From the NCBI RefSeq assembly GCF_055900595.2, contig NZ_CM148325.1: DNA of 64,000 bases, one strand, 5' to 3'. Of this stretch, positions 31,201 through 34,200 are shown piece by piece (position 1 is the stretch's first letter; every line of letters begins with the position of its first letter). Made by a program: the position numbers.

Positions 31201-34200
31201 CATTTCCTTAAACTGTAGTGGTCAGAGTCGCTGTTTTTCAGCGATATGGTGCTGACAAGCGGTGATAAAGCCCTCGAACAATATACGCGAAAGCGCGTAC
31301 TCGCTACTGTTCCATTCCGGGTGCCACTGTACGCCCAGCGCAAAAGGATGATTGATGACGCTAACCGCCTCAACTAAGCCATCCGGCGAGCGAGCTTCAA
31401 CACGCAACCGTGGGCTAACGACCTTCGCCCCTTGTCCATGCAGAGAGTTTACCCAAAAGTTGCTACATTCAGGTAACAACGCAGACAGCAATCCCCCCTC
31501 TTCAACCTGAACTTCATGCGACGGTGCATATTGCTGTTCCACCGGCAGTTCGGGATCTTCCCGATGTTCCAGCAATTCAGGCTGTTCGCACAGCTTGCGA
31601 TGCAACGAACCACCGGTTGCCACCACCAGTTCCTGTAAACCCCGGCAGATGGCGAAAATGGGGATGCGCCTTTCGAGTGCGGCATTAATTAACGCCATGC
31701 TCAGAAGATCACGCCCGGGATCGGCGTCAGGCTCATCGCCGTTTTCACCATATAGGTGCGGCTGCACATTGCTGGGACTACCAGGAAGATAAATACCATC
31801 GAGTTTCGGCAAAAGTTGTTCAAGTAATGACGGTTCCGCCAGCGCATGTGGCAGCGCAATTGGCAAGCCGCCTGCGTGGATGATGGCATTCAGGTACTTT
31901 TCTTGCAGAGTCTGGGTCGCATGACCCTTAAGCCTGTTCCTGCACATTACGACACCGATAACCGGATTGTTCATTATATTTTCCATGCTCAATCTCACAA
32001 AGTGGACTAAATTATCGCCATTACTGCGCTTTAAATGACCTTTATGTTCAATATTTTTTCAATCTAGCAGCGGGTTTTCATTTTTGCAAACCAAATTTAA
32101 CATTTGACAAACATTTAGTTTGCATACAGATTCGAATGGTGGTCATTATATTTTACGCTTTGATAACGAGCGGAAAACAAACCAAAGGCGAAGAATCATG
32201 GAAACCAATATCGTTGAAGTAGAGAACTTTGTTCAGCAGTCAGAAGAGAGGCGGGGTAGCGCCTTTACGCAGGAAGTGAAACGCTACCTGGAGCGCTACC
32301 CGAATACGCAATATGTTGATGTTTTACTTACCGATTTGAATGGTTGTTTTCGTGGAAAACGTATTCCTGTTTCAAGTCTGAAGAAGCTGGAGAAAGGGTG
32401 TTATTTCCCGGCCTCGGTGTTTGCAATGGATATTCTGGGCAACGTCGTAGAAGAAGCGGGCCTGGGTCAGGAAATGGGCGAGCCGGATCGTACCTGTGTT
32501 CCTGTTCTCGGTTCCTTAACCCCTTCTGCTGCAGATCCTGAGTTTATCGGTCAGATGCTCCTGACCATGGTCGATGAAGATGGCGCTCCCTTTGACGTTG
32601 AGCCGCGGAACGTTCTCAACCGCCTGTGGCAGCAGCTACGCCAGCGCGGCTTGTTCCCGGTCGTAGCGGTAGAGCTGGAGTTCTATTTACTGGATCGCCA
32701 GCGCGACGCTGAAGGGTATCTGCAACCGCCCTGCGCGCCCGGCACCGATGACCGCAATACACAAAGTCAGGTTTACTCCGTTGATAACCTCAACCACTTC
32801 GCCGACGTGCTCAATGATATTGATGAGCTGGCGCAGTTACAGCTGATTCCGGCAGATGGCGCGGTCGCCGAGGCCTCGCCAGGTCAGTTTGAAATCAATC
32901 TTTACCATACCGATAACGTGCTGGAAGCTTGCGATGATGCGCTGGCACTAAAACGCCTGGTGCGTCTGATGGCAGAAAAGCATAAGATGCACGCCACTTT
33001 TATGGCGAAGCCGTATGAAGAGCACGCGGGCAGCGGGATGCATATCCATATCAGTATGCAAAATAATCGTGGCGAGAACGTGCTTTCTGACGCGGAAGGC
33101 GAAGATTCGCCGCTGCTGAAAAAGATGCTTGCCGGGATGATTGACCTGATGCCGTCATCAATGGCGTTGCTGGCACCAAACGTGAACTCGTATCGCCGCT
33201 TCCAGCCGGGGATGTATGTACCGACGCAGGCGTCGTGGGGCCATAACAACCGCACCGTCGCCCTGCGTATTCCCTGCGGCGATCGCCATAATCACCGCGT
33301 GGAATATCGCGTGGCGGGTGCCGATGCCAACCCGTATTTGGTGATGGCAGCGATTTTTGCCGGTATTTTGCACGGTCTTGATAACGAACTGCCATTACAG
33401 GAAGAAGTCGAAGGCAACGGGCTGGAACAGGAAGGCTTACCCTTCCCGATTCGCCAGAGCGATGCCCTGGGTGAGTTTATCGAGAATGATCACCTGCGCC
33501 GCTATTTAGGCGAACGCTTCTGCCATGTGTATCACGCCTGTAAAAATGATGAGCTGTTGCAGTTTGAGCGCCTCATCACAGAAACAGAAATTGAGTGGAT
33601 GTTGAAAAACGCGTAATACCCCTTGCGGGGTTGTTTCAGCGGCCTGAGCGGAGCCAGGCCTGACATTTGCTGGTAATCCAGACATTTCCCGGATGTCGCG
33701 TTATGGAGCGCAGGCGGCAACGGGCTTCCGTTAACGATTAAGACTGTGACGAGGAAATGAGATGATGCCGATGATTAAATCCCCGCATGGCGAGGGAGGC
33801 TGCGTATGCGCCCCTCCTGCGACTGACTGGACTCCGCCCCCTTTGCTTCCCTTGCTAAACAGGTTTGATTTCAGGTCGACACGACCGCAAACCTTATTAC
33901 GCAGGGGAGGCAGCAATTATGGCTATTAATTCACCACTGAATATTGCTGCGCAACCCGGCAAAACCCGTCTGCGAAAATCACTGAAATTGTGGCAGGTGG
34001 TGATGATGGGTCTGGCCTATCTCACGCCGATGACTGTGTTCGATACCTTTGGCATTGTTTCCGGCATTAGCGACGGTCACGTTCCGGCGTCCTATTTGCT
34101 GGCGCTGGCGGGTGTGCTGTTTACCGCGATCAGCTACGGCAAACTGGTTCGCCAGTTTCCGGAGGCCGGTTCGGCCTATACCTACGCGCAAAAGTCGATT

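Follow-up and report, generated by a model that had tools for sequence, protein, structure and literature searches.

Translation of the putrescine importer gene puuP of Escherichia coli is probably coupled to that of a small open reading frame (ORF), ymjE, that lies immediately upstream and runs into it. In the stretch that we analysed, 64,000 nucleotides of contig NZ_CM148325.1 (NCBI RefSeq assembly GCF_055900595.2; hereafter ‘the window’), the gene order is puuA (ending at 33616), a 302-nt spacer, puuP (ATG at 33919) and ymjA, and ymjE extends over 55 codons on the + strand from the ATG at 33762 to the TAA at 33927–33929. As judged by its anatomy and its conservation, ymjE is probably a cis-acting leader ORF, and a role of the leader in the control of puuP is very plausible. 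The Shine-Dalgarno (SD) sequence of puuP is predicted to lie in a very stable hairpin, both arms of which are inside the leader ORF, and comparison across Enterobacterales indicates that the hairpin, the ORF and the position of the ORF’s stop codon 8 nt past the puuP ATG have all been kept by selection. The leader is an intergenic region inside the puuA–puuP gene pair and no simple 5′ untranslated region, which corrects the preliminary description of the locus.

Recomputed from the window, the anatomy of the ORF agrees with that description: the 55 codons at 33762–33929 and their translation; GAGGA as ribosome-binding site (33751–33755, + strand), 6 nt 5′ of the ATG; a run of three proline codons, CCG CCC CCT, at 33834–33842; the rare codons AGG (at 33861, 33873 and 33903), CGA (33882) and CTA (33855); and a stop that overlaps the puuP ATG (33919–33921), the TAA being out of frame and 8 nt past that ATG (overlap 33919–33929, + strand). 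The CGAGG of the ymjE SD is invariant in 35 aligned leaders. The ORF itself is not new: it is the already annotated E. coli small protein gene ymjE (b4742 in MG1655, 1359177–1359341 on the minus strand), with which it agrees letter for letter in protein sequence from the second Met onwards. RefSeq places it, as a ‘YmjE family protein’, between puuA and puuP in E. coli records, starting at the second ATG (33765; 54 aa), as does a 2018 paper (PMC6001520), and Pfam PF23692 (YmjE) matches it over its full length at 147.6 bits (gathering cut-off 27). The first ATG (33762), not the annotated second, is however the start kept across all genera: Raoultella has ATG ACG at this place, Serratia has a single ATG, and 33762 is the better spaced of the two to GAGGA. 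VanOrsdel et al. (2018) detected chromosomally SPA-tagged YmjE, noted that the ORF had scored positive in a tetracycline ribosome-profiling screen and that it is placed just 5′ of puuP, and suggested a puuP-related function (PMC6001520); in the work of Weaver et al., YmjE is among the least abundant tagged small proteins (bioRxiv 10.1101/511675). The puuA–ymjE–puuP region is present at 95% identity or more in 4374 of 5426 complete E. coli genomes; the other 1052 have no match to the junction, so that roughly one strain in five lacks the region.

The first line of evidence for coupling is a hairpin that covers the ribosome-binding site of puuP. In the minimum free energy (MFE) structure the anti-SD arm GCUUCCCUUGC (33845–33855, + strand), which encodes L-L-P-L, pairs with the SD arm GCAGGGGAGGC (33901–33911, + strand), which contains the puuP SD GGGGAGG at 33904–33910, and the pairing is accompanied by compensatory changes across genera. 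Between the two arms, fold and alignment place an inner helix, CAGGUUUG (33860–33867) with CAAACCU (33888–33894), plus an apical stem (33860–33894, + strand). The complete E. coli hairpin (33843–33913, 71 nt) has an MFE of −35 kcal/mol and a z-score of −7.1, and 0 of 200 shuffled sequences were as stable. The puuP SD was paired in 18 of the 18 species folded, despite differing arm sequences (for example CCCCC/GGGGG in Klebsiella, GAUCCACCCCG/CGGGGAGGAUC in Citrobacter and GUUUCCCC/GGGGGGAAAC in Serratia). Among 37 aligned leaders, 75% of the SD-hairpin cells are paired as compared to 40–48% in slid-partner controls, and 16 pairs have changed on both sides as compared to 3–8 in the controls; none of 500 shuffles reached the observed covariation score. 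The core SD helix, with its CG-to-UA and CG-to-GC swaps, is approximately 97% paired; for the inner helix the figure is 89.5%, with four pairs changed on both sides. In an equilibrium model run on the ORF region only, the probability that the E. coli SD is unpaired is 0.01 when no ribosome is present.

The second line of evidence is the conservation of the frame and of its end point. A PuuP search with one genome per species gave 80 loci, about 50 of which have puuA, a 266–430-nt spacer and puuP; the genera with such a spacer include Escherichia, Pseudocitrobacter, Klebsiella, Raoultella, Enterobacter, Lelliottia, Huaxiibacter, Trabulsiella, Citrobacter, Pluralibacter, Cedecea, Buttiauxella, Franconibacter and many Serratia. 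In Hafnia the spacer is longer and contains an additional gene. Our leader comparison set comprises 50 genomes from approximately 20 genera. An ATG-initiated ORF of 55–72 codons is found at the equivalent site in all 50 leaders, and its frame is stop-free in every one of them, as compared to 172 and 135 stops in the other two sense frames and 129, 142 and 98 in the antisense frames. The ORF occurs in 12 distinct lengths, while frame and end point are identical throughout: once the puuP ATG is located, the ORF ends 11 nt after its A (stop at +9 to +11) in 50 of 50. The constraint can be read in puuP itself. Codon 3 is ACT, ATT, GCT or TTT, with the final T present in all 50 leaders, including 32 of 32 four-fold-degenerate codons, whereas codon 2 is free to vary; codon 4 is AAY in 49 leaders, and in Hafnia, where it is AGA (Asn4 to Arg), the stop is still there as TAG. 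The fixed T of codon 3, the freedom of codon 2 and the Hafnia TAG together argue that the position of the leader ORF’s stop is itself under selection.

In the Serratia loci (L047–L061) the leader frame is open for 102–108 codons, back to the puuA stop, and some databases accordingly carry ‘hypothetical proteins’ of 87–116 aa from it; the conserved SD and ATG still indicate an ORF of 61–65 codons.

The encoded peptide is constrained as well. The ratio of nonsynonymous to synonymous differences per site (pN/pS), calculated by the Nei-Gojobori method within six clades, is 0.32–0.60 in the leader ORF frame as compared to 0.94–0.97 in the two shifted frames (overall, 0.49 as compared to 0.95 and 0.96), and a frame-blind nucleotide alignment leaves this result unchanged. 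The N-terminal 25 codons are the most constrained part (0.37), followed by the 3′ part (0.59) and the middle (0.63). The N-terminal motif M-M-(Q/P)-M-F-K-Y-P-x-G-E-G (in its shorter form M-x-x-M-F-K-Y-P-x-G) recurs, as does a second motif, R-S-(K/E)-Y-G-P or [KED]-[YCW]-x-P, both with synonymous third-position variation; the E. coli form of the second is D-W-T-P, and its proline is the first of the PPP run. Taken together, these comparisons indicate that the leader ORF is maintained by selection. The peptide conservation across genera at which the preliminary description pointed holds in part: there is frame-specific constraint, strongest at the N-terminus, but between genera the peptide diverges strongly, with a mean column identity of 36% and no invariant column.

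The approximately 145 nt 5′ of the ORF form a third conserved component. Mean column identity over 35 genomes is 78% here, equal to that of coding DNA, and the alignment is consistent with an RNA of three hairpins (33630–33775, + strand): P1 at 33641–33660 (loop GCGGAGC), P2 at 33669–33682 and P3 at 33688–33724 (loop with AUGGAGC), the element ending in the SD and ATG of ymjE. Cells are paired in 97.9% of cases as compared to 23–46% when the partners are slid, and two of the hairpins covary: P1 (CG/UA/GC) and P2 (AU in 18 and UA in 14 of the distinct rows). The covariance model built on it, R1, has one match in the window (33630–33775, 149.8 bits) and recovers instances from outside its training set in Shimwellia and Trabulsiella guamensis; matches of lower strength are found in Franconibacter, Hafnia, Pluralibacter gergoviae and Pantoea, and none in Serratia or before more distant PuuP homologues that do not have puuA upstream. 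A scan of 33000–34500 against Rfam at E up to 1 yielded no match. In Shimwellia it is an unrelated gene, not puuA, that precedes the RNA element, the ORF and puuP, and the leader therefore belongs to puuP, not to puuA.

A GGA is invariant across the 35 leaders in three places, the P1 loop (33650–33652), the P3 loop (33705–33707) and the ymjE SD (33753–33755), which suggests a binding site for a protein or a ligand. The architecture, several GGA motifs with some in loops and one on the SD, resembles that of CsrA sites; we take this resemblance as a lead, not as a result. In a supplementary table of Potts et al. (2017), puuA is marked ‘No’ in four columns and has positive values for ribosome footprints and RNA; puuP and ymjE were not found among the rows covered. 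The ymjE SD can pair with CUUC (33725–33728) or alternatively with CAUUUCC (33682–33688). The latter helix, CAUUUCC (33682–33688) with GGAAAUG (33753–33759), is pairable in 97% of cases but almost invariant, and the alignment neither supports nor excludes it.

How might these components work together? By itself, the puuP ribosome-binding site would be closed. A ribosome translating ymjE would unwind the hairpin and terminate on top of the puuP start, and puuP would be translated by the re-initiating ribosome or by a new 30S subunit before the hairpin refolds; termination 8 nt past the ATG would favour either route. Since the puuP ribosome-binding site would be opened by translation of ymjE, control of puuP would enter at the leader ORF. 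One entry point may be the ymjE initiation site within the three-hairpin RNA, and another may be the stage at which the ribosome elongates the conserved N-terminal portion of YmjE. The PPP run of Escherichia, situated immediately 5′ of the anti-SD arm, may contribute a brief pause during which the hairpin stays open.

Several observations sit less comfortably with coupling. When one ribosome is placed on the 5′ arm in the equilibrium model, the gain in SD exposure is modest (0.2–0.6), because other C-rich tracts can substitute for the arm. The constraint on the peptide (pN/pS of 0.49, and 0.37 at the N-terminus) exceeds what pure coupling needs, and the peptide sequence probably matters in some way that the coupling model leaves unspecified. 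Finally, Pantoea has the upstream RNA element directly 5′ of puuP with no leader ORF, and Erwinia and several Serratia species have short intergenic regions, likewise without it; not every lineage, therefore, needs the leader ORF for puuP expression.

The excess of constraint at the N-terminus could be explained by an arrest peptide. On this explanation, the N-terminal ~25 residues, sitting in the exit tunnel, would stall the ribosome at the conserved proline (at PPP in E. coli), perhaps in response to polyamines (putrescine or another), and thereby change the folding of the leader or the access of Rho, with puuP expression being set in this way; such a mechanism elaborates the coupling model and does not exclude it. 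The length of the constrained N-terminal block, approximately that of the exit tunnel, and the motifs with their synonymous third-position variation are consistent with it, and polyamine-linked leader ORFs, mdtU–mdtJI and speFL, do exist in E. coli (PMC7815308). The geometry in E. coli fits too: the proline run is 3 nt 5′ of the anti-SD arm, and in the ribosome-mask version of the equilibrium model a ribosome with its P site on Pro25 covers that arm and raises SD exposure from 0.01 to approximately 0.4, the largest rise caused by an upstream ribosome. The other genera speak against an arrest mechanism. In them, 17–25 codons separate the conserved proline from the anti-SD arm downstream, a ribosome stalled at that proline would leave the arm uncovered, and one upstream ribosome has little effect in the model.

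The specific stalling cues put forward in the preliminary description fare worse. PPP (33834–33842, + strand) is confined to the Escherichia lineage (5 of the 50 leaders) and is variable even within E. coli and Shigella, where TPSP, TPHP and PPPP alleles also occur; Pseudocitrobacter has TPLP. Only the first proline of the run aligns with the widely conserved one. Each of the five rare codons falls within a hairpin arm or the SD of puuP, and they, like the ‘TPLLSRF’ peptide block, are explained by constraint at the level of the RNA. Part of the N-terminal conservation likewise coincides with a small RNA hairpin (33794–33818, + strand; GGGAGG..CCUCCU with an inner GCG/CGC stem, codons 11–19) that is present in the E. 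coli MFE structure. A hairpin is found at the same codon positions (10–17 in the other leaders) in 50 of 50, with differing stems (in Serratia CGGGC/GCCUG, CGGAC/GUCUG and CGGAC/GUCCG) and modest support (mean z = −0.55). The likeness to SpeFL, which the preliminary description offered as a precedent, amounts to 13.9 bits and E = 0.061 in a single comparison and is not significant, and no chain among the PDB sequences matches YmjE at E up to 10. A homology through a shared ‘FDF’ was discarded, FDF being restricted to Escherichia and encoded by the inner helix of the SD hairpin. Of the proposed stalling leader controlling puuP, then, the leader stands, on the strength of its selection, its translation as seen in the published tagging, its overlap with the puuP start and its SD hairpin, but PPP, the rare codons and the likeness to SpeFL do not. 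A nascent-chain effect of the N-terminal ~25 codons, ending at the conserved proline, is possible, and the proline run may be a lineage-specific refinement rather than a conserved mechanism; an arrest peptide that senses a metabolite we regard as unlikely.

A wider proposal, which we consider still more doubtful, is that the whole puuP leader constitutes an undescribed polyamine-responsive translational switch, in which the three-hairpin RNA, the nascent N-terminal part of YmjE or both would sense putrescine or a related signal and so set the number of ribosomes that traverse the ORF and make the puuP ribosome-binding site accessible.

Two further explanations fit the data less well than coupling does. 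YmjE could be a small protein in its own right with a target in trans, such as PuuP or PuuA, in which case the overlap with puuP would be ordinary operon packing. That the tagged protein reaches detectable levels, that pN/pS is below 1 in the ORF frame and that the original authors proposed a puuP-related function (PMC6001520) would all agree with this, but YmjE is among the least abundant of the tagged small proteins, ranges from 55 to 72 aa in length and evolves fast, at 36% mean column identity with no invariant column across genera. The Pfam YmjE model misses the Citrobacter, Serratia, Hafnia and Franconibacter versions, Klebsiella-type peptides score at or below its threshold, and NCBIfam has no family for any version of the leader peptide; for the versions that Pfam misses or scores so low, a large protein collection has no more than occasional entries, labelled ‘hypothetical protein’. 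Arg, Pro, Gly and Cys abound in the sequence, no hydrophobic segment is discernible by eye, and what the C-terminal third encodes is dictated by three puuP signals, namely the SD hairpin, the SD and the ATG. We therefore consider a function in trans very improbable.

Alternatively, the sole task of the ORF might be to have a long intergenic region covered by ribosomes, as a guard against Rho-dependent polarity between puuA and puuP. A co-oriented gene pair separated by 266–430 nt is a setting in which such a role makes sense, and an open frame with weak peptide constraint is what it needs. It leaves unexplained, however, the covarying hairpin that sequesters the SD, the fixed position of the stop inside puuP, the ~145 untranslated conserved nucleotides 5′ of the ORF and the presence of the leader in Shimwellia, where puuA is not upstream, and we hold anti-polarity as the sole function to be very improbable. 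Finally, the preliminary description allowed equally for a chance ORF without function, and in a single genome such an ORF is indeed not beyond chance, since a frame that is open over 55 codons is no rarity in a GC-rich spacer of 302 nt (composition-preserving shuffles leave the frame open approximately 10% of the time per species); the comparative data nevertheless rule chance out, with the frame open in 50 of 50 leaders and the other five closed (98–172 stops), a shared end point, a frame-specific pN/pS signal and a protein that has been detected.

Other elements of the intergenic region bear less directly on coupling. Three nucleotides past the puuA stop there is a GC hairpin, CCCCUUGCGGGG, followed by UUGUUUC (33619–33630, + strand); many of the aligned leaders show a comparable GC-rich hairpin at this place. 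It was not called as a terminator in a scan for the intrinsic terminator consensus; it could be a weak terminator or a 3′-end stabiliser that sets the puuA:puuP ratio. Consensus scans of 33400–34100 for sigma-70 promoters and intrinsic terminators found none. In a table of one paper, the factors given for puuP include RpoN and RpoS. A candidate sigma-54 promoter, AGGCCTGACATTTGCT (33656–33671, + strand), has the GG-N10-GC spacing but three mismatches to TGGCACG-N4-TTGCW; the window has 114 such matches where 132 are expected, no more than chance would give, neither the GG nor the spacing is kept in Klebsiella or Citrobacter, and the candidate was rejected. So was an antisense ORF of 61 aa (33731–33916, minus strand), the frames of which are closed in other species. 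A mini-ORF, ATG AGA TGA (33757–33765, + strand), overlaps the first ymjE ATG; it takes the form ATG-AGA/AAA-TGA in most genera and ATG-TGA (start-stop) in Citrobacter, and is missing from the Klebsiella group. In Shimwellia (locus L010, 2399–2412, + strand) the leader ORF contains a terminator-like hairpin and, after it, a run of T (GGAGTGCAGGCTCC CTTTTTATAC), which hints at transcription attenuation in that species.

The PuuP search also returned homologues from further afield. Proteins with 69–73% amino-acid identity are found in Bacillus, Neobacillus, Fictibacillus and Cytobacillus, and one with 78% in Pseudomonas aeruginosa PA7; such identities are unusually high for phyla this distant and suggest horizontal transfer. 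A record labelled Chryseobacterium sp. 18061 (locus L035) carries an Enterobacter-type puuA–leader–puuP arrangement, with PuuA approximately 90% and PuuP approximately 88% identical to the E. coli proteins, and is probably a mislabelled or contaminated assembly.

The arrangement that we propose for ymjE and puuP resembles known systems. In uof–fur of E. coli and in the coat–replicase pair of MS2, an upstream ORF ends at or over the main start, translation of the main gene needs ribosomes arriving from upstream, and regulators act at the initiation site of the upstream ORF; in the case of ymjE–puuP that dependence is one that we infer, and ymjE differs in its greater length and in the measurable constraint on its peptide. 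In ermCL–ermC and secM–secA, the downstream SD is paired with a segment inside the leader ORF and is freed by a ribosome on that segment. In those two systems the leader ORF stops a good way short of the regulated start, and the trigger is stalling, whereas ymjE reads through the SD and the ATG of puuP, so that simple read-through and termination can suffice.

Two further parallels are polyamine leaders. SpeFL stalls the ribosome at its own stop codon, relies on conserved C-terminal residues and controls the access of Rho. YmjE has no sequence similarity to it, and its C-terminus is dictated by the overlap with the puuP signals; what the two have in common is a leader ORF before a polyamine-pathway operon in Enterobacteriaceae (speFL–speF, cited in PMC7815308). 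The other parallel is mdtU, upstream of the spermidine exporter operon mdtJI: mdtU too is an E. coli upstream ORF (uORF) that was first found as a small protein, it lies 5′ of a polyamine transporter and is conserved in many genera, a portion of its RNA is predicted to form base pairs with the ribosome-binding site downstream, and its translation is needed for mdtJI expression (Adams et al. 2021, PMC7815308). The differences are that mdtU ends 106 nt short of mdtJ, works together with Rho termination and has a conserved C-terminus, whereas ymjE overlaps the puuP start and is conserved at its N-terminus.

In the searchable literature we found no paper that gives ymjE a function or ties it to puuP control, no description of YmjE conservation beyond Escherichia, of the SD hairpin, of the stop/start overlap or of the upstream RNA, and no functional study on a puuP leader peptide or uORF, on the intergenic region, or on CsrA or translational control of puuP. 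As far as this literature shows, it is thus new that the leader is conserved over approximately 20 genera, that the SD hairpin covaries, that the stop/start overlap is fixed and that a conserved RNA element lies upstream. The Puu catabolic pathway imports putrescine mainly through PuuP, the regulation of which has been described as transcriptional, by PuuR and other factors. A leader ORF that runs through the hairpin over its ribosome-binding site would add a post-transcriptional layer to puuP and, within the gene pair, would separate synthesis of the importer from that of PuuA. YmjE thereby gains a concrete candidate function, and its family is extended from Escherichia to approximately 20 genera, in which the ORF is mostly unannotated. 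Were the doubtful polyamine-responsive switch to prove true, it would be the bacterial importer-side counterpart of speFL and mdtU; together with these two, ymjE would be the third leader ORF before enterobacterial polyamine genes.

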